64,000 nt of DNA from Paraspadella gotoi (taxonomy: Eukaryota; Animalia; Chaetognatha): contig CM119267.1 in NCBI GenBank assembly GCA_051294375.1, positions 7,482,683-7,546,682 of the forward strand, written 5' to 3'. Position numbers and translations under genes: made by a program. This document shows, in pieces, positions 21,264-63,711 of this stretch; within the stretch, counting starts at the first letter, position 1; every line of letters starts with the position of its first letter. The notes under the pieces are model-generated. The model was not told the DNA's origin. It was given only the letters and a program-made list of their open reading frames with translations, and did no database searches.

Positions 21264-22365
21264 TCATCTGACGTGGATGGATCGGTTGAAAGAGATGGCG
21301 TCGATGTGCGAATATAGTTTGGTTACGGCCGATTTGGTAGCCGTGTCCTCGTCGTGGAGGGTTTCCACGTGGTCAAAGTTAAAGAGGAGAGTGCCCTTTC
21401 TGACCCCGAGAATCCGTTCGACTTTTCGTCGCGAAGATCCTGATAGAACGACGAGGCCCAAGCCTGTTACGTCTTTTGGGCGGAAGACGAATGAGCGCTT
21501 GGGTCCCAAAAGGGGCGCGCTCACGGCCTATTTCAAAAGCGGGGAAAGAAAGAAAAAGTATATTTTTAATGAGATATTTAATCATATCATATTTCCTATC
21601 AATCGTTTTAAATTTTCATACCTTTTAACTGATAACACAAATTAGAAAAAATAAAAAATAAAAAAGCCCCTAAAAAAATTGCTTCACCAAGAAATCCTGG
21701 GTGTCGCGGCGAAGATAGAGGTCCGTGATCGGTCTGTAGAGGACACTTGGCGCCAACCTTAAATAGGCCAGAGTCCGACGAAATCCGAGGCCGATAAAGA
21801 CCGAGATCAACGTAATCGCAGCGATTGTCAACGGAAATGCTATCAGACATTCGAGATAAGTTTGGAAACTTATAGCACCTGAATCAAGAAGGCTTTTGGT
21901 GATATGTCGGATGTGTGATATGTGCGATATGATATGTGTGATATATGTGTGATATGTCCACAACCTAAAGATAAACCTGTGATCCAAGTAGTTGGTAAAA
22001 CGATTAACGACCACATCACGCACTTTGCTCCGGTATTGGTGAATGCGGCGGCTCTTCTGGTGATGGCGTTGGGACACGAGTAAAGAAGCAAATGTCGCGA
22101 TCCCGAAGCAGCGTTTGCGGGCGCTGCACCGCTGCCGTCAAGCACAGGATAATTTTCATGTTTACTTTGTTCGTCGACGACGCGAAATTATTTAATCGGC
22201 TTCCTACCTAATGCCTCTGATTTCGAGGCGTCTCCCGTCGACGCGATTCGATAAACGATTGAGTTTTTTCGACGTCGATGTTTGATTTTTCACGACTCGT
22301 TTAGCTTCGCGCTGCACCGTCGCCGCGTATCGGTGCAGCGCGTTAGTTAAAAACAATATTTTCAT
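21264..22365 (-). CDS. Two-transmembrane protein with a basic N-terminus, possibly mitochondrial (TMEM70/TMEM186/TMEM223-like)
   Basis: Four exons join in frame through GT-AG introns (the first is 43 nt): MKILFLTNALHRYAATVQREAKRVV...LLLYSCPN, hydrophobic VMWSLIVLPTTWITGLSLG and LIAFPLTIAAITLISVFIGLGF, then RRTLAYLRL...RSFVFRPKDV. The family call rests on topology only. Confidence 0.6.
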
Positions 22366-22461
22366 TTTAAACTATACCTAGAAAAAAATTGGTGGAAAAA
22401 AAAAATTCAAATTTCAACTTTAAGAAAAAAGTTTCATGGAAGCTTCTTAAAATTCTTTCAT

Positions 22462-22942: not shown

Positions 22943-23065
22943 TTGTATGTTAAAATTTGTATCTTAAACTGGTAAAAAAACAACAGTTTTTTTTTAAAAA
23001 ATTCGTAAACAAACAACAAATAAAAGGTGTATAGCGTTTTATAAGGCAACCATTGTAAAATTATT

Positions 23066-26000
23066 TTAAGAATCGAGGACGGAAAGAATTTTTCTCAAGT
23101 ATTCCTCGTGTCTAACGACATCAAAATCCTCTTCCTCTTCCTCATCTCCCGACGTCCTTCTCATTTTGTAAAGCGTCTCTCGCGCCCTCTCTCGAAAGTC
23201 TGTGCCCTTGACGAGTACGGCGTTCTTGTGCGAGCCCGTGGCCAGCGTCCATAGCACGGCGCAGAAAATGAGCGACGTCTTTCTGGCGACGGGATCGAGT
23301 TCGAGTCTCGTGGCGGCGGCGACGGCGATAGGCAGCAGCCGGCGCGGCAGTGTCAGCAGGGTGGCATTTTTCGAAGAAAAGGAGAGATTGTGAATCACGA
23401 GCGCCGCCTTTTGACGCAATGACCGCGAGGCCGGCGTGGATTCGGGAAGTGAAAAAAACTCGAAGAGAGAGTCGACGCACGCCGTCTGTTGGAGCACCAT
23501 CGCTTGACCCTCAGGATCCAAGGTCAGGTTACAAATAAAGTCCAGCCAAGATGAATTGACTCGGAATCGGCTCGTTGCCTTCTTCGAGGTCAACCGCGCA
23601 AAGTGAGAAACAAAATTTGTCTTTTTGATGACCCCGCGAAACTCGGGAGAGACGGAGGCCATTTTACCTAAAACGACAAAGCAAAGTCGATGATCGGCGG
23701 AATTAGAATCTAATTCCTTTAGTCTAGATGCGTAAGTGAGCAAGGACTGAGCCAAAGAAGTAGTCGGCGGAAACGACACGCGGTTGGAGTCGTTCGAACA
23801 AAGAGATGCTCCGACCAACGTGCTGCGATTGTTGACGATGCAGCGAGCGATCCCTGCCGGATTGTCCGACGCGAAGGCACCGAGAATTCCGAAAAATGCT
23901 TCGTTTAGCCCCGAGTCGATCGACCGCCACGACCAAAGAGACTGTAACATGGCAGACATCTCCGACGACTGTCCGACGTTCTTCGCTTCGGCGCACTCGA
24001 TAAAAAGGTTTTGCAATATGCGCGAGTTTGACAAGAGTTGACACTTGACGCAATCTGAATCTGGCACGGAGCCGTCGGTCGAATGAGCGCCGTTCAAGCT
24101 GTCGACGACCAGGGCGTCGAGGAGACGGTTGGAGTTGTGGATGAGGGATTCGACAAGGCCGAAGTCGATCGCCGCGGATTTGGCGGTGGAGCTGACGGCA
24201 ACGAGGGTTTTGAGGAGATGGCCGGAAAAAGTTTGCAAAGGATTCGCTTTGAGAGGATGATCGAGGAGAGTAGGAATATAGTAAGCATACGTGACCTTTA
24301 GCATCTCGGCGCCGAAAGCTTCCTCAGTCTCCGAACCATAGGGAAGGTCCAACAAGCTGTCGAGTACTTCCAAGCATCTATTGTCTTTACCCATGCAAGT
24401 AAGGAGAGTAGCCCAGAAAGAGAAAAATTGAGTCTGGCGACCACGATCGAGTTTCGCTAAATTCGCAACGAAAAAGTGACACATTGAGTCTCTACTTTTG
24501 AGCAAATCCACAGCGACGACGTAAACTCCGAACATTTGGGAGCGAGAGAGAACGACAATTAACTTCGAGAGAAACGTTAGTAGAGAATCTAAAGTATCGA
24601 GCATGGATGGATGAAATAGGGAGAAACTTTTCTCCAAAAATCCCGAGTTTATCAATTCGCCAAGAAAATTTTTCAGTTCATCGTCCTCCGTAGATGATAG
24701 AAGGCAGTTCAAACAGTTAACGATAGAGTCATACAATTTAGGTAACTCTGTCAATGCTGATCGAAAGAGGCTTTCATCCACGAAAGTCCTTAGAAGACAA
24801 CCTAAAAAGATCTTTTTATCTGATTGATCTAAGGTCAAAAGCTTTTCTTCGTAAATGAAATAGAAGAGGTGACATTTGTATCGATATATGTCCAAGGTTT
24901 TCCTGAGACGTCGGGTCGTTAACAGTTGAAAACTTCTTTCGAAAGATTGAGAAAATAAAGAGCCATCCATGAGGCTGCGGATAGAGCCTCCCGTCAACAA
25001 CGGCATCATAAGCATCAAGCTTTTTAAATTTTCGACGACGACGGTCTCGTCGACTTCCCAGTCGTCCAGCGCAAGATGAAGGACGATTGGGACAAAGTCG
25101 GGACTTTTATGCAGAAGAACAGAAGCCGAGGGTCGAAAGGATAAAATTTGACGAAGAAAGAAGGACATTTTCTCCAGAATCGTTGTCTGACCAGAAAATA
25201 AGATAAGTATCCATCGCCAGTGACTGTCGTCGTCAAAAATGATCTCCGTCCAGAATTCATGGGCTTCTTCCTCTTGAAGATGGTGGTTTAACCAGCAAGC
25301 GGCGACAGAAAGGGCACGAAGGCAGCTTCCGGCAAAGAATAGTCCCGAACGAGAATCTTTGGACTCCTGCGAGTTCGTTGCGCGGCAAAGTATATTTCTT
25401 AGATAGAGACAGAGACGCTTGAGAGCTTCAGCCCTTTCGGGTTCAAAGTCGAAAAAACGTTTCACGATCGTCTGTGCGGCAAACTCCGTTGTCGCTGTCA
25501 ATAGAGGTATCAGGGAAGAGTCGTTGGTGTCCAAACCTGACCCCAACCAATTGACAACGCCCAACAATAGGTCGAAGGAAGGCGTGAAAATGATAAACTC
25601 CAGTAGACAACGGAGAAATCGAGGGGAGACTCGACTTTTCAAACTATTACAGACGAACTGGCAAAACGTCGTAGAAGAAATCGCGGTCGTGACCCAAGGA
25701 ATCTCATCCACATCCTGTAGTCGTAGGCTCAGCGACTCGAGAATAGAAATGGCAAGAATTTCATCCGCTTCGGAGCAAGGAACTGCGCGGAAAAATCTCT
25801 CCAAATCTTCTCCCGCTCGCTCAATCGCTCCAGAATATCGCAGGCGGGGAAGGGCGAGAAAGGTGACGGTTAGAGCCACATCCTCGTGACAAGAAGCGTC
25901 TTTGAGCCGACGCAATAGGGCCGAAATGAATTTATCGACGTCCATCTTCTGAGCGATCAGCTTTTCCGCTTCGGTGTAACTAAGAGGACCAACCTCTTCG

Positions 26001-29000
26001 CTAATTGACGACAAAACGTTCCAACTATGCTTGACTAAGGTCACGGTTCCGTCCTCGTCGAGTCGCCTATTGACGTCTTCCAAATCCAATCTTCGATAAA
26101 TGCTTTTTGCAACGAAGCGCGCCTCAAAGGGCAAATGGAATACGAAACTGAGTTGCACGGGATACTTGGGCCAAAGATCGATGGAAGAAGTCTCAGCTTG
26201 TGAATCATTCTCTAAATCAGAAAAGGCGTAACAAGCTAAGACAACGGAAATGCTGGCAACGACCGAGGAGTTTTCCCTGTATTTGACAGCCAATCTGCAG
26301 AGAGTTTCAACCAATTCCCAGGCTGATTGACTTTTTGAAGTCTTCGTTGGCCATCGTGCGCCATCGCGAAGTCGCATTCGCATCGACTTCCTGGACATCG
26401 TGAGCGCGAAGAGACGCAGAGCGTTGGGAATAACGTCGTCGATGGAAAGTGGCGGAGCGGCGGCGTTATCTACTGCGGCGACATCAGCGAGAACCGAAGC
26501 AAGGATGGCATCATCGGTGATGAGCGAGTCAGAAACTGGTCCTCCCGAAATAATTGCTTGGCAAATCGCCGCGGCAGCTGTGGCGCGAACGTCTGGCGCA
26601 GCCGCAGTGTTAAGGAAAATAGTCTTCACTCTACCGAGGGAGTCTTTGTCGCCGCCAAAAGTTTCGCTTCTCGCAGCAGCGATATCGAAATCCCCGAGTT
26701 GAACGAAGGCGTCGGCAAACGTCTCCAGCTCCACAACCGTCGCAATCCTTAAAAACGACTTCCCGATCTCTGTGACGGATAAAAATCTCCGAATTCCTTC
26801 ATTGCGAAGAGTTTTGTTCTTGGAAAACAAAAGAGCGATAGTCGACTTTAATGCCGAAACGACGGAACAATGCCTAAAATCTAGGAGAGAAACCATCGTC
26901 CTCGAGAATAAGTGCCGGCTGCTTGAAATTCCGATGGCGAAAGGAAGAAGAGAAATCAACTTGTCACGAATCAAATCGTTGAGAAACTGAGACTCGTAGA
27001 GATCTCGACGATCGACGATGAGCGTCAGGATCGTTTCTGCAGCGACGCTGGTGATTGAGTCCGTCATTCCGCCGACAATGATTTCCCGAAGAACGTCTTC
27101 GTCGTCGAGGAGTTTTAACTTTTCCGCGGGATCGAAAGAAGGATTTTCGGCGGCAACGCGAGCGTTTAAAGCTTCTGCAACGACTTGAGAAAGAGCTTCG
27201 TACATCGCCGTCCTAACTGATGTAATCGGATGCGCTAAAAGGCCAAGAAAATCCAGACGATGACGGGAAAACGAAGAGGAAAATATATCCAAAAGACAAG
27301 GCAAAACTTTAACGCGATGCGTGTAGGCTAAATACAGAACAAAGTCGACGGTTTCATCGTCTGCATCCGAATCTTTCAATCGATGATGAGTATTTTCCAA
27401 CTTCGCGCAAACGTCCAAAGCGTGAACGACGTTCCGAAATTCAATCGGCGACGAACGAGACAAAAGCGGAAGCATCATGGTTGAACGGACATTGGCAAAT
27501 GAGTCGTTAAAAAAGGGATCGCGGGCGAGGAGGCAGAGAGCGTTAACGCAGGAAAGCGGAAGTTCGTCTGGAGAGACGGCGAGATCCGTCTCCACTGGCT
27601 TGACGAACAAGTTGAGGAGAGAAGTAAAGAAGAATCCGACATGAACGAAACTCCACAATCGCGAGGCAGAAGGCGGCGTTGTGGTCGTTATATCGCTGAC
27701 CCAAGATAATCGAAGCACCGCGTCGGCTAGTGGAGTCAAGCATCGCGAACCGACGAATGCCAACTCTTCGCGGGTTAATTCGAGAGGCACAGCCGTGCGG
27801 AGGACAGTCGCTGCTTTTTCGAGGATGTGGAAGAGGTCGCGAGCGATGCGAAGAAGTGAAAGATCTTCGCTGTCGTCTTTGCTTAAAAGCGCTGTGGAAC
27901 AAAAATCGTCTTCTCGGGGTCGAAGCGAGTTCGCCAGGCAATGGGAGGCAAATTCAATCAATATGGCGGCGGCGAGAGAAGCGTTGTAGTTTGTACGGGT
28001 TTCTTTGACAACGTTGTATTCATTCCTCTCTGCTATAAGATCGTAAGTCCTGGCTTCCATCTCAACAAGGTCGTCTACCCGGACCATTAGACATTTGGCT
28101 AACTCTTCCACAACGCCAAGAATCCGTTCCATGACGGCCAGATCGCGGCGAGGACTTCCGGTGAGAGAGTTCAACGCACCGAAAATGTCGCAGGATTCCC
28201 TCAGCAAATATTCGATTGGAAAGTCTTTCAGCAAGACATCATTGACGATGTTCAACGCGTCCATCATCCCATCGTTGTTATCGCTCTTGAACAAAGCAAA
28301 CGAGGACCGCAACAACTCTTCATCAACGGGGGATATCCTCTTGGCCGGAGGCAAAATCGAAAACGAGACCAGGATCGGTGCGGGATCATCGATGCTCCCG
28401 TCAACCAGCGAAGAAATTGCAGAACACCGCTGCGGCGAAGCGTCTTTCACTCCGGAGACGAAGACTCCGTCTGAGGAAGAAAGAGTCGCTTCTTTGCCTA
28501 AATTTGGGTCGGTTTCGTGAGGAAGGTAGAGACAAGCTGATGAGCCTCGACATTGAGGGACTTTCATGATGATATTTTGCAGGATTAAGTCGACAGTTTG
28601 AGAACTGGAGGCATCGATATCCATCCGAAGTTCTGAAAAAAAATAGCTCATGGTAACACAGATAAAGAAGCCTTTTCAAAATTCAGATCTGATCTAAACT
28701 CACCGGTTAAGAAATCGATGGCCCCGATTGAAGCCAGAGTCTCACACCCCTGGTCTTCTTTGGACAAACGGAACAATAGATTCAAGGCTTGAGAACGCAT
28801 TCCGGTGGGTGGAAAGTTGAACCACTGGATGGTAAAGTTTAAAATATTTTTTTTATCTACATTAAGAAAATTCGTTAATTTCCTTAATCTTTATTATCAA
28901 TAACAACCTCGTTCGTGGACTATTTATATTTTTGGCGCAGCGTTTCTGAGATTTTATAAGTAATCAATTTATCATTTGAAATTCCAAAATTGCGAAAAAG

Positions 29001-29193
29001 ATACCCCAATTCCATCCACGTTACGTCCAAACGTACATACTTGTAGTAAAGCCTTCCCGAGCTCCACCTTGGTGCTCAGTTCCGCGACGGTAAGAAAGCC
29101 CAAGTCAAGTTTTTGCAATAACGTGGTCAAAGCTCTCTCTCGAATTTCAACCACAGGATGAGAGAGTTTTTTCCAAAGGTTCCCAGTCGACAT
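23066..29193 (-). CDS. RTTN: Rotatin (centriolar ARM/HEAT-repeat protein)
   Basis: N-terminus LWKKLSHPVVEIRERAL...LLQWFNFP (RTTN_N-like), DVLLKDFPIEYLL, and ARM-like helical repeats. Two short 5' exons plus a terminal exon of about 5.57 kb (28633-23066). Confidence 0.85.
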
Positions 29194-36920: not shown

Positions 36921-37221
36921 CGTCGGATAAGCTCTTCGCTTACGTCATCGCAGAGTCTGGTGCTTCGCACAGAGAAATTTTAGTTGGTCTTTCGAAGAAA
37001 AGATAAGGCGGAGACATTTCGCGACGCTTAGTTTAAACGTGCGTCGGGGCCTAGTTTCCTTAACGCTATTCTATAAAGACGTCATCCAATATACGTAGTT
37101 TAAAAGTGGACAAACTAAAATGTTCAAAACAAACAATGAAGTACAATAATTATTGCAGAATAATTTTAAAATTAACTGAAAACTTAATAGCTCAACGGGC
37201 CGAGCATCATAATAAAGGTAA

Positions 37222-38736: not shown

Positions 38737-39320
38737 TTATTTCCTAGTTTTCCTCATGGTCAGAATCCGTATGTCGTTCCCAAAAGATCTTCCTTCATCG
38801 ATGTCGACGGCAGGAACAGCCTCGACGCAGGTGTAGCCTCTCCTTTCATACATCCGCAGAATATCGACGACGCAAGAGACGACTTTGATCTCGCTCGTGG
38901 GCGCCAAATCCTCGGCGCGATCGAGGAGCAAACGACCGGCTCCCCGACGTTGCCAGCGAGGATCCACGGCGAGGGGACCGATGAAGGCGACATCGTCCTT
39001 TACCGAGACCCTGAAAACCTTGTTCATGAATAAATGACTAAATTATAACTAACTACTATATAACGTTTTCATCGTCTTACTACGCCATCTAACCTAACGC
39101 AACCAACGATCTCGCCGCCGTCGGCGCCCTCTCTCGCGACGAGCATGTGATGCAGGTCTTCCTCCGCCTCGAGTCTTCCCTCTTTGCCGTGGTATCGATT
39201 CGGCCTCTTGAAGACGACGCCGAACTTGCGGTTTTGGGCGGCATAAGCGGAATTGACCATTTCAATGATGCGGTTGAGATCAGATTCGAGGTCGGGTTTA
39301 TTTATCACGAAGGTCGTCAT
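38737..39320 (-). CDS. GNAT-family N-acetyltransferase, paralog B (2 exons)
   Basis: RIIEMVNSAY, MLVARE...IVGCVR, LAVDPRWQRRGAGRLLLDRAE, MYERRGY; same intron position as paralog A. Confidence 0.85.
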
Positions 39321-39531
39321 CACATCTCTTTCACTAAATAAAATGTTTAGAAAAATACATTTGTATATAAATAGTTGGGAGTTTGAAAAAATGTATCAAC
39401 CATTGAAATGTATAATAATGAAATTCTTAAACCAAAAAGCTATTGTTAACAAAAAAAAATGTGAGCTTGGAACGGGTTAAAAGAGATAGAAGTATGTTAT
39501 CGCATTAATAATAGAGATCACAGGTCAGAGT

Positions 39532-41875
39532 CTAGAGTTCCTCCTTGGTCGGGGAGAAGTTCTCTTTAACCCGAACAAATTCCTCGTGAGATTTGACATG
39601 GTCCACCGCTTTTCGGACGAGACGCAGAAACTCGCGGGGGTCGAACCCGTAGTCCGTGAATTTCTTGTGGGGGCCGAGGGTAGGGTGATGGCCCTCGTCT
39701 CTCGGGTACAAATATTCCTCCTTTTCCCACCTGTTGAAATAAGCAAACTTTGAGTAAAGAAAAACGAAAAGCTAATGCGAGGATATTTGAGGAAATCAAC
39801 GCAGCTTACGTTACGTAATGGACTCCTCTCAGCCGAGCAAGATTAGCGTAGCAATCTTCATCGTCGCACGAGTAGAGTTCAAAGACGACGCCCCAGTCGG
39901 GGAGAAAGAGAAGGTGGGTGAGGCCCGCACCGTGCAGCCCGATGAAAATGTCCGACTCGTAGGTCATTCGAAGTTGATCCAAAAATGGCACCTGGAGAGC
40001 GTACGTATAAAAATATTTACATCGATCAAAGAGCCAATCGTCCCCCAGTCCCCAACCCGCTAACTCAGGACCTGAAAATTGTAGTAAACGACTCTGACTT
40101 CGAGGTCGGGCTGCCGGCGAAGAAGCTCGACGAGTTCCACCTGATTGACGATATTCCGAAATTTGGTTCTTCTCTCGAGGATCGTGACGACGATTTTTCC
40201 GTCGGGTCGAGGCACGCGAGAGGGTATACCCAGGCGATGGAGGACGTGATGAGAAAAGGCTTTGTAAAGGCCTATCGGAGAAATAAAGACGTTTTTAGTC
40301 TAGCGTTTAGAATTTTGACAGCCGTATGTCGGTACTCGCCAGTTCCGCTGCATCCCGGTACCAAAGGCATGTTGTAAAAATGGCCATATCTCATCCTGAA
40401 AATACATGAAAATTGAAACAGGAACAGAGATAATCTATTGTTGATACAATGAAAATTTAGGTTTACTTTCCTGAAAAAATGTTTTAAAATACAGAGAAAA
40501 TATTTTTAAAACAAAGATTCATCGTTTTAGCAGTTGAAATTAAAAAGCTAGAGGCAACCGCACTGATGACCAAATACGAGTTAATGACTACGAATCAATT
40601 TTACCTTGGCAATAGACCCATAACAAAATCAGAGAAGCAAACTCTTTTCCCGGCGAAGTCGGAAAGTCGCAAAAGGGGATTTTTTGAGAAGGCTTTCCAC
40701 GTTACTTCAAAGGGGTCCAAGTATCGCATTTGACTCGTGTCCCACATCAAAATGTTTATGTCCAGGTCGAACGTTCCTTTAAAAGGAAAAGGGGAAAACA
40801 ACTGCTGGGGGGACGAAATGAGATTTTTCTTAGTCAATACTGAGCCTACCGTTGAGGTGCTGCGTCATATAGAGGTTGACAAAATCACAAAAGTGATGAA
40901 ACATGTTGACGGCTGCGTCGAGTTTGACGAAGAAAGTGGGTTTGTCGATCCGGACGTCGCATCGCTTCGACTTGGACGGCTTGAAGGGTAGAGAAGTGAA
41001 TGACTCCAACTCGGCATACCATGATTGCAATGCTGACTTGTGGGCACTGTTGGTACGATGGGTGGACGAGTCAAAATCACAGAATCCACCTAGGAAACCC
41101 GTCGTTATAAGAATTATAGAACGATAAAACAAAAACAATCCAACAACATAAGAGAAATCAGTATGCGTTTTACCGATTTGCCCGGGAGAGAAGAGATTTT
41201 CGCGAAATCTATCGTTTTCGTAGACGAATTCCACTTTTCGCAGATCAATATAAAGATGGCGACCGCGGCAAAAGCGCGTGTACTGCGAACAAATCAGCGA
41301 AGAGTCCGACCATTTCTTTCCAGCGCAGATGGTGGCAAGCTCTTTTAGTCTTTTTCGTAGGTAACCAAAATCTCCCTGGAAATTAAAATCTCGTATAATT
41401 CTATATTTTTTCACCCGAAACTTTTTTAATGACTAAAACTAGGCTTCCTTCTTCCTCGTTTAATATAAACTGCTATTGAGCTGAAAAACAGTCGGACCTG
41501 TTCGAAAAACTGCGTTTCTTGATCGATCTTGTCACTCGCCCATCCACGAGAATCTCCGGCGCACCCACGAGGCGACAAATATCTGTTTTGAGGTAGGCAG
41601 TCGTCCTCGTGACCCCAACAGGCGTCATCGCCAGGGAGATTGCACGGCGCCGAGGCGTTGACGCAATAAGCCTTAAGACGCGGGTGAGAGTTTAAAAAGT
41701 AAGGCACGTGGTCGGAAGGAAGATGTAAAGATGATATGTCGAACGTGGTTGGCGTCGGTTTGCTGGCGTTGGTGGCGGGGACAATTTCAGGTTTCACACC
41801 CAGGTAAAGGAGGAACAAAAGGGAAAGGCTAGGCAGTTTCAGCGCCAGAACCCAAACTAATTTGGATGTCTTCAT
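39532..41875 (-). CDS. EOGT: EGF domain-specific O-GlcNAc transferase (GT61)
   Basis: Hydrophobic N-terminus, [69 protein letters not shown], and a C-terminal KEEL ER-retention-like motif (TAG 39532-39534). Confidence 0.94.
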
Positions 41876-45700: not shown

Positions 45701-48700
45701 CACTGAACCAAATTCTATATGATTTTGCATACAGTATCCCAATGGTCATATTAATGGGACTATAGAGGAAATTTTCAAGATTTCGTGTGAACAATTGCAT
45801 TTATGTCTTAACTTTGTAGAAAAACCATTTTATAATATTCATGAATTAAAATTTATTTTTATTCCTTTGCACTGCAGCGCAAAAAAAAGTAGCCACTTGT
45901 TTCACACCAAGAAAAACTATATTGGATGGCTGAATTTAAAAAAACAAAAAAGTATTGAAAGCTGAAGCGATTGGTCCAAGTCCCAATAAAATCGAGCGAA
46001 GCGTTTAAAAGTTATAGTATGGCAACGGAGGGACATGTGTGATGCCTGGGGTGTGAGGCATCTCCCGACAGCTGGCGCTCAGGGCTTTGGACCTGCAGTG
46101 ACCACCCCATGTCACTGGCGTATTTATGCCGACATTATCACTCTTTAACCAGCGTGACCGTGAGGGGATGGAACCCGGAACTCACGGTTGGTGAATAAGT
46201 ACTTAGCTTTTTCAAGCCAATGGGACGAGTTGAGTTTCACCAAGCTTTGCGGGAGGCGAATTTAGGATTCGCCACAATAAGACAAATTCAGCATCAAATA
46301 TCTGTAGGGATAGGTGTCAACTATTTTTTTACCAAAATAAAATTAAAATAAGTAGGGAAACTATACGGAAAAACAATCTTTTAAAAGTAAGGAAAAAGCA
46401 GTTGAGTTACCCAAGATTACTTTCAAAGCTTTTTCATATCTAAATATTTATTCTTATAGCATTTCGTGTTGAAGCAAACTTTTATATTAACATTTAATTA
46501 TATTAAAACTATTTTTTTCATTTTTGTTATAAAATTACTTTTTGATTTTGTAAAAACTTTAAAAAAATTACTTCTTTTTAATATTTATTATTAGATATCA
46601 TATTTAGTATAAATTAAAAAGCTATTTTATAGAAAAAAATTTATTGCTAACCCTTTTATATGTTTAATTTCATTATGATTTTGTCATTTCTATATTATAA
46701 ATAACAGTCAGAAAAAGAAATGTTATCAATACTAACCTTTGGAAATAACTTTTTCCCAATTCCATTTTGAGACTCTGACTTTAAAGTCTTGCTGTATTAT
46801 ACTGCCTGATTTGGTTCTTTTTTTTTTCACCAATCGATAGCTCTTTAAAAAAGCTATACTTTTTAGATATATTTTTTTCAAAATTAAAAAAGAAATAGTG
46901 GTGTATTTAAAGCTAACTAGGGGCTACTTTTTTTTGCGCCGCAGTGAAAACTTGCTTCGTCCACCATTTTAGATCTAATTTTTGCTCTCCACTCGAAAGT
47001 TCTTATGTTTATGAATGATCCTGGAAATAGAGTGAAAATTGTTTTTTGTCATAATAAATATACTTTTCTGAATAAGTAAACGTTTCTGCAACTGATTAAG
47101 ATAAAAAGTTCAAAAAATTTGTCCGCCGGGGCTGACCCCTGGGGGGCCCATATCTCAGGTCATAGGCCAAATTTTAAAAATCTCCTCAATAGTCCCATTT
47201 CTATTGCCCTAAAATAAATTCATGCAAAATTTCAAGTAGTTTGATCGGAACTGATTCTCGGTTCGAAAAAACAGGAGAGCATTTTTTAAAATGAAGGCTT
47301 CTGTATGGTATCCTCATAAAGACTCCTCATTAAAAAAATTAAAGTTAAAAATATTTTTATAATACACACTCCTCATGCCTCACCCTTCAAACTTGGGTTT
47401 GACTGGGGTGTCGGCACCAGTGGCTACAAGCAATGTCTTGCAAAGGTAAGCCTGTCCGCGTTGATCTTTCATGGTGAACATTCCCTCATTAGTTTTGGAT
47501 TCCACCAGTTGCATGATGCCCCTAATTGTTGTATTAAATTGAACCTGACAGTGAGGAATGAGAAACAATTAATAATTACTACCTTAAGTTATTCTTAATA
47601 TTCTCAATTCAAAAAACCTTAATTCCAAGCTTTTTTTGGTAATCTGCTAAATAATCAACCAGTCTGTCAGCGTGAGGGAACATCTTTCTGGAGTAATGCC
47701 GCATGAGTAGAGAGTCATCATCACTCAGTAAAGAGTTCCAATCATGGCGCAGGTTAAATTCCTGTCATTAAAATTTAAACCTATCTCTAACTCGAATTAA
47801 GACATTTTTTTTTGAGGGATTTACAAGTGCAGTATTTAATTGCTGTACTTGTAAATCCCATAAAAAAATGTCTTAATTCAATTTACCTTACCTGTGCATA
47901 TGATGTCCCTTCAAAAATTATCTCTAACTTATTTAGTAATTTATATTCTAATTGATTGATATAGATTACTAATTATAAATTATATTAATTGATAAATTAA
48001 TATATTCTAAATTAAGATCCTCATGGCCGCCCATACGTTCTCTGCATTATAATAGAACTGTCTTTAACCCACTGATATTTAATCAAGTCGATAGATGCAG
48101 TATTAAGGTAAGCCATAACTCAATAAATACCACTCATCCGCAAAGCTGAAGTAACTCACATTGTTTGTTTTCCCCGTGTTGCGCTTATTAATGGATATGA
48201 GTGTTCGGTGCCGCGGGTACTTGAGATAAAAACTCCCTGGAACATTTGCTCGTTCAAAGATGACGTAATCACGGTTAGCTCTAAATAAATTGGGTATTAA
48301 TTTATAGTAAAAATATATTCAGATGGATAACAAAAAAAATTAAACTTTAGATGGAAATTGTCATACCATCTACACTTCTACAGTTTAATCATTCCACACC
48401 ACACAGCATACATATAATTTTAACAAGTGGCGAATCTTAAATTCGCCTCCCGTATAGCTTTGGTGAAACTCGGCTCGTCCCATTGGCTTGGACAGCTAAG
48501 TACTCGTTCACCAACCGTGAGTTCCGGGTTCAATCCCCTCCCGGTCACGCTGGTTAAAGTATGATGGTGTCGGCAGGCATAAACACGCCAGTGACATGGG
48601 GTGGTCACTGCAGGTCTAAAGCCCTGAGCGCCAGCTGTCGGGAGATGCCTTACACCCCGGGCATCACACATGTCTCCCTGTTGCCATAAACTCTCAGTAA

Positions 48701-51042: not shown

Positions 51043-52611
51043 TTAGCTACAGGAAGAGTTGCGAGAAACTGCATCCTCCATTAAATGTTGGGTAAAGTGT
51101 TTTCGAGAGGGATAAAAAGAATCACAATTTTGACAAAAATGAATAAATTTCTCGGGACAATGACGATCGTAAATATGTATCTGCAAAGATCCTTCGTTGT
51201 CTCTCAACAATCCGCAATAGTGACAGACACAAAGCCTTTTGTCCAAAACCGTATTGCGAAGAATTTTGACTTTTTCAACGCTGGTGTCTATTTCCGGAAG
51301 CGGTCCTGTTATACGTAAGGCCGTTTCAATAAAAGGTTCAAAGTCATGAACTTGTTTGAAATGGCTTAGTTGATCGGAATCTGCAACTGTATGGTTACAA
51401 ATCCTACATGTCCCCTGTTCGATAGTTATATCATGGATCTTTTTCATATGTTTTATAAATTTATTGTATACATAAGTTCTAAAACAAATGTGACATTTGT
51501 GTCGTAGCACAACTTGGATATTCGAATTGACAGTCATGTTTTCTATCACTGATTCATTGGAAACATTTAATTGATTCGGCTCTAACGTTTGATCTTGCTG
51601 AGCGACAGTGCGAACCACTGATTGAAATTTATGCTTTTTCATCAAATGTTTATTTTCTGACGTTGTGACTAAACCGCAAATTCTACAAGTTTTACCGTCT
51701 ATTATTTTTTGGTGAATGTTGAGGTAATGAGATGCGATTTGGTCGCCTGAAAAGACGTCAAAACACAAGTGACAGCGATACTGCAGATGTTTTGCAAAAC
51801 GAAAGCTGGGGGAATCGATTTGGGATATTTTCGCTAAATGAATCTCAGATGTTTTTGAGTTTTCATCCGATAGCTTGTCGCTTAAAATATCGTTTGAAGC
51901 ATCATTTTCGATCAAAGGTTCTTCAGTGGCTTCGATTTCTTCGAAGTCGTCATAGCTTTCTTCAGCATGGTCATCGGGCATATTAATGTCTAAAAAATCT
52001 AGAGGTTCCTCTTCCTTGGGCGTAACAGAATCGATCAAATCCACAACAGTAGTTTTTTCCTTTGAAGCGGCGGGCCCCTCGAGTTTTAGTCTTTTTGTGG
52101 GACGGTTAACTTCCCCTTCGTTAAAGCTCAACATCGAGGCTCTGTCAATGTTGTTGCACGCGTTTCTAACGGTTTCTTCGTCAAAACGAGGCAAGCCCTC
52201 GTTTGAAGCGGCGTCATTAAAACTATTCTCAACATGCTTGTTTAGCGTTTTTTCATTATTATCGATAGATCGATGGAAATGGCTGGGGAGGCCTAGTTGG
52301 TCCGAAGTATAATTATTGCTAACCGTAGGACTAGGACCTTCATTGGTCGTAAACCCTGAAGAATTAGCGTAAAACTGTGTCTGTGAAACACTATGATAAA
52401 GATGCACCGGGAGGCTTGGGCGAGCAATACCATAATAAGAGGCATTGCTGTTTGATTTTTCTCCTCCATTTTGAAATGGCTCGAATGGTAAAGTTGATCG
52501 TTCCAAAAGAATGTGTTTTTCAGTCTTGAACAAGCTCCAGAGCCCACAGCTTATTTGTCTATGTAGAAGAGCATGAACAGCATTCATAACTTGATCTACT
52601 GAATCCACCAT
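51043..52611 (-). CDS. C2H2-type zinc finger protein, paralog 1 (intronless CDS)
   Basis: 522-aa ORF with six CxxC...H...(H) fingers and an N-terminal motif shared with paralogs 2 and 3. Confidence 0.88.
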   Translation of the reverse strand: MVDSVDQVMNAVHALLHRQISCGLWSLFKTEKHILLERSTLPFEPFQNGGEKSNSNASYYGIARPSLPVHLYHSVSQTQFYANSSGFTTNEGPSPTVSNNYTSDQLGLPSHFHRSIDNNEKTLNKHVENSFNDAASNEGLPRFDEETVRNACNNIDRASMLSFNEGEVNRPTKRLKLEGPAASKEKTTVVDLIDSVTPKEEEPLDFLDINMPDDHAEESYDDFEEIEATEEPLIENDASNDILSDKLSDENSKTSEIHLAKISQIDSPSFRFAKHLQYRCHLCFDVFSGDQIASHYLNIHQKIIDGKTCRICGLVTTSENKHLMKKHKFQSVVRTVAQQDQTLEPNQLNVSNESVIENMTVNSNIQVVLRHKCHICFRTYVYNKFIKHMKKIHDITIEQGTCRICNHTVADSDQLSHFKQVHDFEPFIETALRITGPLPEIDTSVEKVKILRNTVLDKRLCVCHYCGLLRDNEGSLQIHIYDRHCPEKFIHFCQNCDSFYPSRKHFTQHLMEDAVSRNSSCS

Positions 52612-53371
52612 TTTTTATTCTGAAAGTCTCGTTAATTCCTGAAAAAAACATCACGAGGCAAATAAATTCAACGTTTAAATTTCAGGACAACAATTTCTTT
52701 TAAACGAAAAATTACAAATAGTTTTTTATTACATATTTTTGTCAACAGCTTTTTTTTTCGTTCTCCCTTCGGCTTTAACTTTTTCAATTTTTATTTCACT
52801 TCAAGTCAACGTTTATTGAACGAAAAAAATTTTAAAGGCGTGTTTAAAAGAATGTTGGATATATTTGTATAACAATGCCCAATAGAAATAATTGATAATA
52901 ATAATTAATAAACACTACTATATCAGAATTCAGAAAGACAACGAAATTGACTAAGAAAACGAAAACAACAATCATGACGAGAGTGTTCAAATTTTTTAAA
53001 GTTCAAATTTTTTAAAGTTATATGAACCCTCGCATTATTCAATAAAAATTGGATACAATTAAAACTCGATAGCAAAATGGAAACATGCCCGGCCTACCAG
53101 CCCAAGGTCATAGGTTGGATTCCAACAAAAAGGAAAGAGGGAACGAAAGAAAAAGATCAAGATGGAACAAAAGAGTGAGACGGAACGAAAGAGAAAGAGA
53201 TAGAATGAGAAATGTCGGACTCAAATTCTTGAAGAATAACTGAAACTGTCAACATCTCCTAAAAATTACCGCACATCAGAAAAAAAAATTAATGACTGGA
53301 AGAGGTAAACAATTAACCAGACCGTTGCTTATAATGATGGAATTTTATTTCTCTATGGAATTGAATGTTAT

Positions 53372-55381
53372 TCAGTTTTTGGCAATTAAATGGTCAGAAA
53401 AGTGCTTTCTTGATGGATAAAAAGCATCACAATTACGACAGAAATGAATGAATTTTTCAGGACAGTGATTATCGTAAATGTGCATCTGCAAAGAAGCTTC
53501 GCTGTCTAGAAATAATCCGCAATAGTGACAAACGAAAAGAATAACGTCAAACTGTTTTTGGCGCAAGATTTTAATGTTTTGAGCATTGGGGTCGACAGCG
53601 GGAAGCGGTTCTGCCATCCTTAATGGCGTTTTGACAAAAGGTACGAAATCATGAACCTCTGAATAGTGCTTATTCCTCTGAGAATCGGCGATTGGTTCAT
53701 TACAAATTCGGCAAGTGCCTCGAACCACCGTTGAATTATGAGTTTCTCTTAAGTGGTTTATCAATTTTGGGTATGAAAAAGTTTTCAAACAAATATGACA
53801 CTTGTGTCTCACAAAAGTCTTGGATTCGTGCTGTGTTGTTAGATCTTTAATATTTCGATATTTCTGATGTAGGCACGTAGTGTTATGATCATCTGGAAGC
53901 TTAGTTTGATCGAGATTATCGGGTATAGTCGGATAATTATCTGGCGGCTTTTTTAGATCCTGATTATTGGGTATTGTTGTCTGATCCTGATTATCTGGTA
54001 CCGATGTCTGATCCTGATTATCTGGAACCGTTGTCTGATCCTGATTATCTGGAACCATTGTCTGTTCCTGATTATCTGGAACCGTTGTCTGATCCTGATT
54101 GTCAAGCATCGTTGATTGCTCATCTGACATGTTTGCATAATTATGATTTTCTGGTAGTGTTGATTGCTCATGATAATCGAGAAGCGTCGTTAGTTCATCA
54201 TTATCCGTGACCGTTGATAGATCGATATGTTGCATCGTTGCTTGATCATGATTGTCTGACAAAGTTGTTAGTTGGAGATTATCTGCCTTTTGGGTACTTT
54301 CAGTTACGTGGGTTTCTGCTGTTGCCTTCTTACTACTGTTTTTATATTTTTTTATATTCTGATTGGTTGGTAACTTACTGCGAGAAACAACATGAAATTT
54401 ATGACGTCTCATCATATGTTGATACTCTTTCTTGGTGGCTACACCACAAATTCGACAGGTCTTACCATCTATAACTTTCTGATGAATATTCAGGTAGTGT
54501 GTAACTATTTGATCCCCATTACAGATTTCAGAACACAAGTGACACCGATATTGCAGATATCTTGCATGTCTGTACATTGGAGATTGGCTTCTATTTTCTG
54601 GAGGTGAAACTTTCTTACTGCTATTACTTTGCTCATGGATATCGTTTTTATCAATAACCGATTCATCTTTATTTCTAGCATTGGGATTGTGCTCTTCTTC
54701 AGTTTCGTCGTCTGACAAAATTTCAAAGTCTACAAAATCTAGAGACTCCTCTTGCTTTGGCACCACAAATTCAGTCGATTGAACAGTCGTTCTTTTTTTA
54801 GCTGAATCTGAGGAACAAGAACTAGAACTCTGACGTTTACGAGTTTTTGAAATATTTTTTAATTCATTACTAAAGCGCTGTATCGATGATTTATTACTAT
54901 CAGTGTTGGTTTTTGATACATTGTTGATCGAAGGCAAACTACGAGCGGAAGAGCTAATCATCTTCACTTGATTATAACATGTACGAATAAGAGGCTTAAC
55001 AAAACTTTGTTTGGTGAAGCCTTTAAACGAAGTCGCCTCGCTGCTGATTGAAACTGGAAAAGGATTAATTTGGTTAGTCGACGCAGAAAAAGTGCCCCTG
55101 GTTTTGATACCGAGGGGATTGGGATAATTTAGTCGCGAGACATTTAAATAAGGTTGGGCCTGGTTATTCAAAAGTGGAAGATTAAAATTGGGATAGCCAA
55201 CAGGCACAGTTTTCTCCGCAGTTATAAGAGACACAGGTTGTTCCGTCGAACGCTCTAAAAGAACATGTTTTTCAGTCTTAAACACAGTCCAGAGTCCTGA
55301 GGTTATCTGTTGATGCAGAAGTACTCGTACAGCATCCAAAACATGCTCTACAGATTCTGCCATCGTGTCTTTTTGGGCCAT
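53372..55381 (-). CDS. C2H2-type zinc finger protein, paralog 2 (intronless CDS)
   Basis: 669-aa ORF; finger array nearly collinear with paralog 1 (QYRCHLC, DGKTCRICG, CHYCGL, HCPEKFIHFC, FYPSRKHF); internal 9-aa repeats. Confidence 0.88.
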   Translation of the reverse strand: MAQKDTMAESVEHVLDAVRVLLHQQITSGLWTVFKTEKHVLLERSTEQPVSLITAEKTVPVGYPNFNLPLLNNQAQPYLNVSRLNYPNPLGIKTRGTFSASTNQINPFPVSISSEATSFKGFTKQSFVKPLIRTCYNQVKMISSSARSLPSINNVSKTNTDSNKSSIQRFSNELKNISKTRKRQSSSSCSSDSAKKRTTVQSTEFVVPKQEESLDFVDFEILSDDETEEEHNPNARNKDESVIDKNDIHEQSNSSKKVSPPENRSQSPMYRHARYLQYRCHLCSEICNGDQIVTHYLNIHQKVIDGKTCRICGVATKKEYQHMMRRHKFHVVSRSKLPTNQNIKKYKNSSKKATAETHVTESTQKADNLQLTTLSDNHDQATMQHIDLSTVTDNDELTTLLDYHEQSTLPENHNYANMSDEQSTMLDNQDQTTVPDNQEQTMVPDNQDQTTVPDNQDQTSVPDNQDQTTIPNNQDLKKPPDNYPTIPDNLDQTKLPDDHNTTCLHQKYRNIKDLTTQHESKTFVRHKCHICLKTFSYPKLINHLRETHNSTVVRGTCRICNEPIADSQRNKHYSEVHDFVPFVKTPLRMAEPLPAVDPNAQNIKILRQKQFDVILFVCHYCGLFLDSEASLQMHIYDNHCPEKFIHFCRNCDAFYPSRKHFSDHLIAKN
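53945..54105 (-). repeat. Coding 27-bp tandem repeat (PDNQDQTTV)
   Basis: Repeated GTCTGATCCTGATTATCTGGAACCGTT units, in frame in paralog 2, with more degenerate units on either side. Confidence 0.9.
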
Positions 55382-55459
55382 TTTTGTAAGTAATTAATCA
55401 CTATAAAAATGATCAAAATAAGAGGCAATATAAGGCAAAAACAAAAAGTCTGTTATGAT

Positions 55460-56896
55460 TTAATTAAAGGTAACGGAAACATGGCTTTTCAAAGATGTGA
55501 CTGAGGAAAAAAAATTGTTGCAGTGAAGGCAAAGTTGAGTGAATCTTTTATCGGTGTGGAATTTCACGACGTGATTTTGAATCGAATTTCTGCAGCTAAA
55601 GATACGGGAGCAGTAGTGGCACTTGTATCGCGTTTTGCCGGCCACATGACATCTTAGCATGCATTTAGAAAGAAATTTTGGCGCGGTCCCACGCGCACGG
55701 AGCGAGGAACTCTCCGGAAATTCTGTTTTTATTTCCACGGCCCGCTGTATCAATCTTCGACGACGACCGTAAGAAGTTGGCTCGGCTTTGGCTTTTGAGG
55801 TTCGGGGCCGAAGGTCGAGCTTGGAGAGAAACTCGTCCTGTTCTGGATCCACTATTGCGCTAACTGTATCGTTGTTAGAAAGCCGCGAAAGTCGGCTCTT
55901 TTCCGTCGGAGCAGTTTTGTTTTTAGATTCAGTGTTTGGCCGAGAATTGACGTCATTTGTTGCCTGCTGAGTTTTTTCGCTTTTTGTCAGCATTTGCTCG
56001 GGAAAAAAATTGACTGTGGAGGCCGACGAGTGTTTTTTTACGTTTTGAAATTCAGTGCCCACGTTATCGAGTATATCGTTGAGGTCTTTCTCGAGACAAG
56101 AAGTCGTTTTGTGTTCTGTCAGAGCCGTATTAGAGCCGAACTTTGCGTTGCAGAAGAGGCACATTATATTTTTCCTGACCACGCACTTGTCACGTTGTGA
56201 GCGACGACAAGGATGGGACTTCTTCGCTAAGATACGACTGCGCCGAATTTCTCGCGGACGAACCGATATCATAGATCGACTTTTACGCTGAGAAGCCGAA
56301 GCGAAAGACCTCGTTGGCGAAAGGTTCACATCCTTAGGATTCAAACGGATCAAAGAGACTCGTAGAAAAGGTGTCGGGTCGCTCACAGGAGGGACGGAAA
56401 TTTCGGGAAATGAATCTGCAATAAGCGTTTCGGAGTTGCCAGAGGTAGCAGCATCTGCATTTTGGGCAATCGGTGCGTGGTCGTCGTCAGAGTCATTTTC
56501 TTCCCTGGATTGAAGGCCGAACGAAGCCCGCGCAGTTTCAGAATCTAAATAAGGATCATTAAGGTTCGCTTCGTCCGAGAATTCCGAGCCGTGAATTTCG
56601 AACTCTGCGAAGGGAGCGGTGCCTTTGTAGTCCCGTCCGTCGATCATATATTCAGAACTCAGACTGACGCGCGGACTGTTCGGAGATCCCACGCGATATT
56701 CGTTGATGAGAAGACGTTCCTCCTTTGTCGTTTTACTCGAGTCGTCGACAGAGTCGAAAGAGCGTTCGTATCGCTCGAGGATGATATGCTTCTCGGTTTT
56801 GAAAAGACTCCAGGTCCCGCTTTTGATTTTCTCTTCAAGGAAAGTTTCGATGGCGGCGAGTACTTGATCAAAGGAGTCGGTCAACGACTCATTCAT
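55460..56896 (-). CDS. C2H2-type zinc finger protein, paralog 3 (intronless CDS)
   Basis: ATG at 56896 (the ORF track starts at an upstream non-ATG codon); same N-terminal motif; fingers CLFC..H...C, CHYC..HVVKFH and CLHC..H. Confidence 0.85.
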   Translation of the reverse strand: MNESLTDSFDQVLAAIETFLEEKIKSGTWSLFKTEKHIILERYERSFDSVDDSSKTTKEERLLINEYRVGSPNSPRVSLSSEYMIDGRDYKGTAPFAEFEIHGSEFSDEANLNDPYLDSETARASFGLQSREENDSDDDHAPIAQNADAATSGNSETLIADSFPEISVPPVSDPTPFLRVSLIRLNPKDVNLSPTRSFASASQRKSRSMISVRPREIRRSRILAKKSHPCRRSQRDKCVVRKNIMCLFCNAKFGSNTALTEHKTTSCLEKDLNDILDNVGTEFQNVKKHSSASTVNFFPEQMLTKSEKTQQATNDVNSRPNTESKNKTAPTEKSRLSRLSNNDTVSAIVDPEQDEFLSKLDLRPRTSKAKAEPTSYGRRRRLIQRAVEIKTEFPESSSLRARGTAPKFLSKCMLRCHVAGKTRYKCHYCSRIFSCRNSIQNHVVKFHTDKRFTQLCLHCNNFFSSVTSLKSHVSVTFN

Positions 56897-56999
56897 TTTT
56901 ATCAATAAATTAGTAGTATCTCTAAAAAGAAACAACGATCAACAAAAATCCTATCAACAATTATCAACTCTAAATAAAGTCCACTAACTAGTAACTTCT

Positions 57000-59027
57000 T
57001 TAAAATTCCATATATTGAATGAAATATTCGTCCGAATTGACGGAAACATCCTCCATTTCCCCAGTGTTCTTAAGAAAAGTCTCCAAGGATTCCGCCGCCT
57101 CCAGGTATGCCTCCAAATCGGCCACGACGACAGCAAGATCTTTGAGAGTCTCCAGCCTCTGGTCGTCATCCTCGAGAGCGAGTCGAACGAAGTGAGCGTC
57201 GACCACTGAAGACGCCCACGAAAGAATTTTGTCGTAAACTCCTGGAGCGAATCTCGACGAATCGAAAGCGTTCAACATCTGCAAAAGTTGACGAAGGAGC
57301 ACACCCACTTCGTCCTTTGATAAGGTCTTCAAGCTTTTAGTCAAGTCATCCTGGCTCATAGCATAGGAAACGATCTTTTCCAAAATACGCTTCATCAGAC
57401 CCTGGTCGTCGTCCCCAGCCACGCTCATCACACCGCGCCATATACGACACAAATCCGCGGCGCCTGCGCCTTCCTGTTCCAGCGCCAGCAGGATATCGTC
57501 CCAGCGGCGACGCTCGAGCAAAACTTCGATGAGGCGGGTCCAGTCGGAGACGACGGCGACGGAGAGTAAATGCTGAAGGACGGCCGGGGGACAGAAGCCC
57601 TCGACGTCAGCGAATCCATCGACGACGACTCTCAGCATTTCCGATCTCTCCACGTCATTCAAGTTTCTTAACATTGCCACATCGAAAGCGGAAGGGTCCG
57701 ACCGTAAAGCTTTTACGCAATCGTCGAAAAAAGAGGGTCTTTTTTTGCCCCAAAAAGCGGAGGTGGAATGTTGTCGTTGAGAAGATTTTCCAAAGTTGAA
57801 GGAGAGAGTAGAGGCATGTTCTTTGACGGTATAAGGGAAGGATAGAAGTTTTCGACCTAAAAAAAAGCAAATACAAAACGAAATTTGTAACTCGATATTC
57901 GCCAACCGAAGTGGATTTTAAAAATCCTTAATTAGTTTTATTTTTATGTAATAAGAAAGAAGTGTGGGTTTTATATTTTGTTCCATAAAATTTTTTTTGT
58001 TTTACTCGGTCAGACGTAAAATGTTATAAAAGATAACCTCGCAGTCCCCACTTTACTACATCGTCCACGTTTAAATCTTACCATCGACAACGAGTAAAAA
58101 ACTCGTCCCCAAATCGCAACTAATTCCGTCGCCCGCGTCGCCAACGAATTCCCGCGAGGCCAGGATGGTGCCGAACTTCAGTCCGACAACGACGAGGCAG
58201 TTGGCGGCGGGTTGGAGGGCGAAGGCCACGTCGCGGGCGGAGTCGACGTGAAGAAGATGAAGACCCGCGGGGATTTGAACGTCATTGGCAGCGGGGAAGA
58301 CGTTCGGAGCGTGCGGCGCAGAGTCGTCGGCGACCGGAAGGAGGAATTCGATGAGGCGTCCGTCCGCACCAAAGACGCAGACTGATTCTTCTCTCATAAA
58401 AACTCGGGAAAGTGGCGAATCAAAGGATTGCGGCGCCGAAAGTCGAAAGATCGCGGATTTCCCGGATTCGAAGTGAAAAATTCGGCAAGTGAGACGGCTA
58501 GGGTCGGCATCGTCGTCACGGCTGACGACGGCCATTTTTTTCCCATAAAAATCCGACGCAACCGCTCTCGAACTCACTTCAAATTCCATCGCTTCCCGGC
58601 CCCAAAGTTTCCTGATTCTACCCGCCGAGTCTTTGATGGCGACGCCGCCATCGCCAAGAGCAGTCAATGACGGCTTTCCGTCACGGCGTATATGGGGTGT
58701 CCACAAAAGAGTCTTTTCGACCCCATCGCTCAAAGCGGACGCCTCTCGACTCCATTTCCACAGTTCGGCGTCGTCGACGACGGCGAGGAAAGTGGAGACA
58801 AAAGGGGAATCTTTCGAAGAATCAGTTACGCCTGTCGCCGAGCAAGAAAATCGACGAGGTTCGGTAAGAGGGTAATTCCGCGTGATCCTTTGCGACCCTG
58901 TGTCGAATACGGAGACGACGCCGACACAAGTGACGAGTATGTCGCATCCGTAGACGGTGACGCCGAGAATGGTCGGCCGGGAGCCAGAGGTTTCCAACAG
59001 CGCGAAGCTTGGTTCCAGTTCTGCCAT
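57000..59027 (-). CDS. NOL11: Nucleolar protein 11-like (Utp8 counterpart), 2 exons
   Basis: N-terminus MAELEPSFALL...ILGVT...ILVT...LWKW and C-terminal ILSWASSVVDAHF...YFIQYMEF resemble NOL11 termini; divergent in between. Confidence 0.7.
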
Positions 59028-59881
59028 TGCTGGATACAAATCTGAAAATTAGCTATGGTGTGGAATCAAACGGATTTCACTGGGAATGATGATAAAAAGA
59101 AATTCGTACGTAACCCAATTTCGCATTTTACCGGTGACATTGCGAAAAATTACAGGGGATAACTATATAGGTCACGACTAAACAAGTGAATTTCTTTTAT
59201 TTGGCAATTCGCAATTAGTGGTTTCCACAGTTAATGTACTTTTGACGGTTCGCTTGAAATATATATTCATATATACCAAAGCATTACGTGGTATACAGTC
59301 AAAAAATGTATACCCGATTATCTACAAAAAAATAATTTTCTTAGCTTATATTACATAATTAAATGTAATTAAATGCCAATCGTGTGTTTATCTATGTGTT
59401 GGTGAGACTTAAGAAAAATGTACACAATAGACCTAGATCAAATCAGAGATGGCAAACGACTATGAAAACTTAAACGATAAAAATGAATACCATTAAAAAG
59501 TACAACTCAATTTCCTAGAAAGGCGAAAACGAAAAATACAATTGTCATCCGCTAACCTAGAACCGAATTAGTTACAAAAATTAATACGGTAGAAATTAAA
59601 AAAAAGAAAAAAACAAATTCATTTTTGTTTTCAATCGATTCCTTCAGCCAAAAAAAATATACTGATTTTAAAGCGAATAACAAAAGTGAAAAAAAAATCG
59701 AGGGGCGAGCAAGAGGGAGGGAAAAGGGAATGACGAGATAGCGGGACGTAGGCGCGACGTTGTCAATGTACAAAAACAAATATCAGATCAAAATTGCGCC
59801 AATTCGAAGCTCTTGTCTCTTCGATTTCTTGAAACATATCAGGGGAAAAACAAAATGTGGGTGAAGCAAAGCACCCGCAGG

Positions 59882-62712: not shown

Positions 62713-62891
62713 CGTAAGGGAGGGCGAGGTTCTCGGCTAGGGGAATGAGGCTATATTTATCGTCCGTTTATGTCCAGTTTGTGGTTGTAGCGCATCGAAG
62801 GAACTTAAAACTTGATCGTTAAAACTGTAAAATAAAAAATTTAATAAACAATTGTGAAAGGCTCAGAACGCCCATGCGAGCGCACTGTGGA

Positions 62892-63639: not shown

Positions 63640-63711
63640 AGCGAGAAGCGGTTAACTTGAAACAAAACAAAAAATTGGTTTTATCACAGCAACATGGGAA
63701 CATCAGAAACG

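Follow-up and report, generated by a model that had tools for sequence, protein, structure and literature searches.

In this work we analysed a 64,000-nucleotide (nt) stretch of the genome of the arrow worm Paraspadella gotoi (Chaetognatha; contig CM119267.1, positions 7,482,683 to 7,546,682, hereafter the window, with coordinates counted from its first base) for the way in which mRNA 3' ends are formed at tight junctions between neighboring genes. On balance we favor the reading that the upstream mRNA at such a junction ends at or just before the trans-splice acceptor of the downstream gene and is made free of a hexamer signal, by or together with trans-splicing, and that the other genes use AAUAAA. 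All 21 protein-coding genes of the window lie on the minus strand. Eight of the 20 junctions measure at most 301 nt from stop codon to ATG and four are shorter than 105 nt, so that same-orientation neighbors lie very close, as in Ciona-type operons. The short AATAAA-free gaps between these co-oriented genes are likely operon junctions. Spliced-leader trans-splicing and operons are known from chaetognaths (PMC2481426, PMC2566580, PMC12460157); in P. gotoi nearly half of the genes are reported as trans-spliced and 18% as members of operons, the latter being defined by gaps of <250 bp (PMC12460157).

The gene RPL35 places the DNA in this phylum. The top named matches of its exon 2 are from Spadella cephaloptera (85% and 82%), and the remaining named animals reach at most 74%. 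In a tree of 38 of the 122 available rows (the window, L109, the best 17 matches and 19 further named animals, with the other 84 matches omitted), the window and the two named Spadella proteins belong to one clade of 18 rows with a support of 100/99. A relative's RPL35 that carries the spliced leader is identical to the window protein at 87 of 92 residues. The initial annotation had presupposed trans-splicing and operons, and that premise fits chaetognath DNA, a phylum with both features and a relative's leader-bearing RPL35.

The favored reading fits best at two junctions, NOL11-like/ZF-A and EOGT/GNAT1; those with variant hexamers may use either mode. Trans-splice acceptors were predicted by a matrix built from 20 RNA-supported introns; they are unmapped, and some have poor scores. 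The features around the first of the two junctions are as follows.

57000..59027, minus strand: NOL11-like gene (a weak name), from open reading frames (ORFs); two exons, intron 57857-58081, stop codon TAA at 57002-57000.
56922..56999, minus strand: stop-to-acceptor stretch of the NOL11-like gene, 78 nt, U-rich, likely its 3' untranslated region (UTR).
56922..56923, minus strand: predicted trans-splice acceptor AG of ZF-A (TTTCTTTTTAG), acceptor score 3.8, 25 nt ahead of the ATG.
55460..56896, minus strand: ZF-A, an intronless C2H2 zinc-finger gene (Pfam zf-C2H2_4), covered unspliced by an RNA contig of run X1.
55459..55464, minus strand: ATTAAA overlapping the ZF-A stop codon, 58 nt upstream of the acceptor G.
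55382..55459, minus strand: ZF-A/ZF-B spacer, 78 nt, predicted acceptor AG at 55402-55401, bridged by an X1 contig.
53372..55381, minus strand: ZF-B, an intronless zinc-finger paralogue with AATAAA 25 nt past its stop codon (53349).

Between the NOL11-like stop codon and the ZF-A acceptor the best hexamer is at least two mismatches away from AATAAA, and no GTRAG donor occurs from the stop codon to the AG. Branch-like TTGAT motifs lie 17, 32, and 42 nt upstream of that AG. The SL2-type arrangement of nematodes (a hexamer, a poly(A) site and then 50-200 nt) does not describe this junction, which is hexamer-free and 78 nt in total. The name NOL11-like comes from an Atlas lead, Nol11_C, with a score of 0.90 and 15-27% of members; the gene gave no Pfam match, its N-terminal exon has no name, and a homologue search with an NOL11-like exon gave nothing. 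Three tandem intronless C2H2 paralogues (51043-56896, minus strand) have in common a conserved 40-residue N-terminal motif without a Pfam match. ZF-B and the third paralogue, ZF-C, are 54% identical across the C-terminal 156 amino acids, and near 53980-54100 ZF-B contains a tandem repeat with a unit of 27 nt.

We counted AATAAA on the sense strand of the spacers. All seven intervals reported by the initial annotation to lack the signal do lack it; they measure 72-301 nt and are U-rich. Taken alone, this absence is weak evidence, and it is informative only against the idea of a hexamer in every 3' UTR. Between stop codon and predicted acceptor, AATAAA was found in 0/8 short (≤301 nt) versus 8/12 long spacers (Fisher P = 0.005). 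Spacer length accounts for much of this contrast: at the long-spacer rate 2.07 copies would be expected in the eight short spacers, with P = 0.13 for none. If 40-60% of genes carried the hexamer (usage rates assumed), its absence from all eight would have P = 0.017-0.0007. The 12 long same-strand spacers hold 18 copies compared to 11.1 in shuffled sequence (P = 0.036); the eight spacers that carry them had been overlooked by the initial annotation. It had correctly placed AATAAA behind SPTLC2 (1700-1695) and GFOD1 (5159-5154), and SPTLC2, which it called the most downstream gene, is the last gene in the window only. In five of the long spacers (59201, 52730, 33535, 7845, and 4532) AATAAA lies 44-116 nt ahead of the predicted acceptor, a nematode-like spacing noticed post hoc. 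At none of the junctions (0/20) does AATAAA fall in the 40 nt ahead of the predicted acceptor, the nearest copy being 44 nt away, a result of low information given the small chance expectation.

The same counts bear on a coupling of the trypanosome type, to which the initial annotation had likened the window. Trypanosomes use no signal at all and place poly(A) ∼100 nt ahead of the downstream pyrimidine tract (PMC9639853). Hexamer-free junctions do exist here, as that explanation predicts. At five junctions, however, the distances from stop codon to predicted acceptor are 56, 59, 67, 78, and 84 nt, and a site at such an offset would fall inside coding sequence; AATAAA also remains in use, being carried by 8/12 long spacers and enriched near the transcript ends of relatives. 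We concluded that the analogy is wrong, and trypanosome-type coupling is very improbable for the window. The precise precedent is the tunicate operon, which the annotation did not name.

We scanned marine metagenome records with the published SL2.0 spliced-leader motif and obtained at least 120 loci. Seventy-four contigs were analysed, namely 79 full ones minus five (a genomic contig, one that bears a leader at either end and three ending in an open frame); 41 loci known only as 300 nt were left out of the end analysis. After removal of terminal A, 19 of the 74 contigs end on AG, where cutting the same UTRs at random would give 5.2. The last bases are YAG in 11 contigs (2.2 expected) and a pyrimidine tract plus YAG in six (0.85 expected). 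In G-ending contigs the preceding base is A in 19/35 cases versus a background of 25.5% (P = 0.0003), and contigs ending in C or T show no matching excess. Seven of the 19 AG ends score as acceptors, compared with 13.5% of internal AGs (P = 0.009). A pyrimidine-rich CAG is also the end of each of two RPL7A transcripts, which come from separate samples, differ in their UTRs and encode proteins that are 84% identical. Acceptor-like AGs located 1-35 nt inside the contig ends were not enriched (16 versus 15.5). AATAAA is enriched in the last 40 nt of the contigs (7 versus 1.45 expected, P = 0.0008); at -45 to -8 it is found in none of the 19 AG-enders and in five of the 55 others, and these five exceed background (P = 0.003). 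The contig data suggest two kinds of 3' end. Thus the coupling to a downstream acceptor proposed by the initial annotation has indirect support, from these AG ends and from a published case in which poly(A) site and acceptor are 3 nt apart, neither of which concerns a gene of the window.

Two-gene contigs were also present among the relatives. Three of them (L006, L049, and L071) have no AATAAA ahead of the likely acceptor; a fourth, the tandem paralogue pair L052, has one 89 nt ahead of it. The second genes are by Pfam RPS16 (L049), RPS8 (L071), and a kinesin (L006); the first genes we take to be RPL10-like, RPL10A-like, and a small glutaredoxin-like ORF, respectively. Leading A runs of at least five bases were seen in three of the at least 120 leader-bearing contigs. 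The end of L029, CAG plus five A, was not counted as a tail since it may be read-through. Pfam recognized no CPSF subunit among the ORFs of the 74 contigs. Contig L061 contains two tandem spliced-leader gene copies (228-249 and 923-944) that are 695 nt apart, each leader being followed by a GTATGT donor. L064 and L076, from two samples, are transcripts of ribosomal protein L4 that carry the leader and have open frames of ∼1100-1180 amino acids, the extra length being a long low-complexity C-terminal extension.

In the window, RNA cover was taken from run X1, presumed to be RNA as its contigs join across GT-AG introns; runs X2 and X3 gave short matches only. One X1 contig, spliced at the NOL11-like intron, extends over 56926-57854 and 58080-59850 and includes the spacer down to 56926. 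A second covers 54071-56921 and bridges the 55382-55459 gap, and a third, spliced contig runs from RPL35 through gene X to the RRM gene and includes 22366-22461. Since spliced contigs cover the gaps, the gaps occur in spliced RNA, either as UTR or as precursor. The contig on the NOL11-like side stops at 56926 and the next starts at 56921, the first base past the predicted AG, and the bin depths leave no room for a bridging contig. Further contigs stop at 22997 (rotatin-like; before a genomic A9 run and 34 nt from the next acceptor), at 29400 (MICAL-like; within an A8 run and 181 nt from the next acceptor), and at 50107 (ZF-C; beyond two AATAAA). None of these stops was counted as evidence, since the contigs of a single study give no proof of where an RNA ends.

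Several observations weigh against the favored reading. In dinucleotide shuffles of the seven intervals 0.74 copies of AATAAA were expected, with a probability of 0.46 that all would be zero, so the absence is within chance. X1 contigs also cross spacers that do bear AATAAA (ZF-B/ZF-C and FOXRED2-like/EOGT), and for that reason bridging picks no mechanism. Neither a poly(A) tail nor a leader was found on the X1 contigs of the window among the matches listed (6 of 7; 14 of 392). The rotatin-like and MICAL-like contig stops, if real, would oppose a fixed end at the junction. The 74 leader-bearing contigs come from other chaetognath species, and their ends are assembly ends, not RNA ends. G is common at these ends overall (35/74); priming bias at read ends might inflate AG ends, for which there was no library control. 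Twelve of the 19 AG ends do not score as acceptors, and a rank test of their acceptor scores was marginal (P = 0.056, or P = 0.10 minus the six nearest bases). The AATAAA contrast between AG-enders and others is not significant (0/19 versus 5/55, P = 0.32), and one AG-ender, L077, has AATAAA 5 nt from its end. Finally, a one-mismatch hexamer is present in 6/8 short junctions, in three of them 15-24 nt ahead of the AG.

The chance probability of 0.46 also speaks for an explanation in which some gaps contain no 3' end at all, the RNA reading through to a signal in the next gene or remaining dicistronic, and the lack of a hexamer simply reflecting short U-rich sequence. The X1 contigs that bridge ZF-A/ZF-B and RPL35/gene X/RRM gene, the AATAAA copies located downstream within ZF-A (55733) and ZF-B (54895 and 54673), and the two-gene contigs L006, L049, and L071 would agree with such read-through. 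A contig spanning two genes is not one transcript, however; a poly(A) site has been mapped to the junction of the published chaetognath operon (PMC2481426), and read-through leaves the ends on AG unexplained. We regard this explanation as unlikely.

The variant hexamers lead to a further explanation, in which ordinary CPSF cleavage is directed by these variants and U-rich elements, with trans-splicing either acting afterwards on the cleaved precursor or competing with cleavage, as in nematode operons. The remaining short junctions, which bear on it, are listed below.

63640..63711, minus strand: OGFOD1-like/EXOSC1 spacer; GATAAA (63685-63680) 24 nt upstream of the predicted acceptor G 63656.
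62713..62891, minus strand: EXOSC1/MRG-domain gene spacer; ATTAAA (62845-62840) 15 nt upstream of the predicted acceptor G 62825.
39321..39531, minus strand: EOGT-like/GNAT1 spacer; predicted acceptor G 39334, no hexamer with one mismatch or fewer upstream.
36921..37221, minus strand: GNAT2/WD40 gene spacer; ACTAAA at 36984, 22 nt ahead of the predicted AG.
22943..23065, minus strand: rotatin-like/RPL35 spacer; TATAAA (23043-23038), the genomic A9 run, predicted acceptors G 22969 and G 22963.
22366..22461, minus strand: RPL35/gene X spacer; AATGAA (22462-22457) overlapping the RPL35 stop codon, predicted acceptor G 22378, bridged by the spliced X1 contig.

The TATAAA, GATAAA, and ATTAAA (62845-62840) quoted by the initial annotation are thus in place; its list had missed the ATTAAA at 55464-55459, the AATGAA, and the ACTAAA. 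GATAAA, ACTAAA, and ATTAAA at 24, 22, and 15 nt ahead of the AG, together with ATTAAA, AATGAA, and TATAAA at 58-79 nt, would give six of the eight short junctions a candidate signal, and the AATAAA enrichment at the relatives' contig ends and the post hoc spacing in five long spacers point in the same direction. On the other side, NOL11-like/ZF-A and EOGT/GNAT1 have no hexamer with one mismatch or fewer upstream of the acceptor (2/8), the hexamer differs from junction to junction with a distance to the AG of anything from 15 to 79 nt, and the excess of ends exactly on AG is left unexplained. Cleavage at variant hexamers appears a real but rather unlikely explanation.

The genes flanking these junctions gave some side observations. 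The names EOGT, FOXRED2, WDR48, RAB7, KIF15, SPTLC2, and GFOD1 reflect Pfam domains or sequence recognition, without orthology tests. The rotatin-like gene (23066-29193, minus strand) has just two introns and a final exon of ∼5.6 kb. Gene X (21264-22365, minus strand) encodes 255 amino acids in four RNA-supported exons, and the two pieces scanned gave no Pfam match. The EOGT-like gene has a 68-nt GC-AG intron (40272-40339, minus strand) that is joined across in RNA, and an ATG-TGA start-stop lies directly before and overlaps the GNAT1 start codon (39320-39325, minus strand). The FOXRED2-like introns contain an inverted pair of ∼270-nt repeat copies (46030-46300 and 48430-48700, seen by eye), a region that matches many divergent X1 contigs.

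Returning to a 3' end made at the acceptor, we envisage four steps. Neighboring genes would be transcribed as a single precursor, with which the spliced RNA contigs that bridge or cover the gaps are consistent. The spliceosome would then add the leader at this AG by way of a branch point within the upstream 3' UTR; leader addition as such is known for the phylum (PMC2481426). The cut at the AG would free the upstream RNA, which would be debranched, in some cases shortened by a few bases, and then polyadenylated with no hexamer involved; we infer this step from the Ciona model, where the chemistry is hypothetical too. The other genes, mostly those with long spacers, would keep ordinary AAUAAA-directed cleavage. 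With the upstream mRNA ending at the acceptor, most of the gap at a tight junction would belong to the 3' UTR, leaving almost no true intercistronic DNA. This matters for annotation, as the 3' UTR may fill these "spacers" all the way to the next gene.

The arrangement has already been described in tunicates and is new only as a probable chaetognath instance. In a bolder reading, which we consider rather unlikely, routine hexamer-free polyadenylation at a 3' end cut by trans-splicing would have evolved in arrow worms independently of tunicates, and individual genes would switch between this mode and cleavage directed by AAUAAA, even inside a single tandem cluster of zinc-finger genes. If true, a protostome would have the Ciona geometry and the arrangement would have arisen more than once; it would also provide a second system with both modes adjacent, in which to ask whether the spliceosome makes the polyadenylation substrate. 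Among the papers listed in our literature search, which was thin on subscription journals, there was no study of chaetognath polyadenylation signals. The main text of PMC12460157 (2025) does not mention polyadenyl or polyA, and the passages available from PMC2481426 do not discuss a polyadenylation signal.

We compared the window with known systems. Within the phylum, Spadella and P. gotoi have the same trans-splicing and operons; the 3-nt distance from poly(A) site to acceptor is one mapped case, the RPS14-PCNA operon of S. cephaloptera (PMC2481426), and an operon-specific leader is reported absent from P. gotoi (PMC12460157) and S. cephaloptera (PMC2481426). The trypanosome system resembles the window in a UTR without a signal and in a 3' end that here, too, would be placed by downstream trans-splicing; its fixed offset of ∼100 nt and its genome-wide signal loss do not fit. 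SL1-type operons of Caenorhabditis elegans likewise have little intercistronic sequence or none, but the three characterized cases retain AATAAA (PMC1488885), which no short junction here does. In SL2-type operons the median intercistronic distance is 129 nt and a dedicated SL2 is linked to CstF (PMC7668243); some long spacers of the window similarly carry AATAAA 44-173 nt ahead of the acceptor, whereas chaetognaths lack an operon-specific leader and no room is left at the tight junctions. The two operon types have been restated recently, with Schistosoma assigned to the spaced type (PMC12582326). In Ciona intestinalis operons poly(A) addition fell on the G of the AG acceptor in 41/55 cDNAs, with 2-6 nt of heterogeneity, and 16/18 operons lack AATAAA; the 3' end was proposed to be made by trans-splicing, the same lack of AATAAA was cited for Oikopleura, and how the upstream 3' end forms was left open in 2006 (PMC1488885). 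Ciona and the window are alike in their close co-oriented genes, the lack of AATAAA in the 40 nt next to the acceptor, other genes that still use AATAAA, no operon-specific leader, and a proposed 3' end formed by the trans-splicing cut. They differ in lineage, the window being protostome, and in that poly(A) sites are mapped in Ciona and only predicted here; several window junctions also have variant hexamers or a longer AATAAA-bearing gap, and the mix of modes may be broader. We concluded that the window probably works like a Ciona-type operon, as a putative member whose leader and poly(A) positions are predicted.

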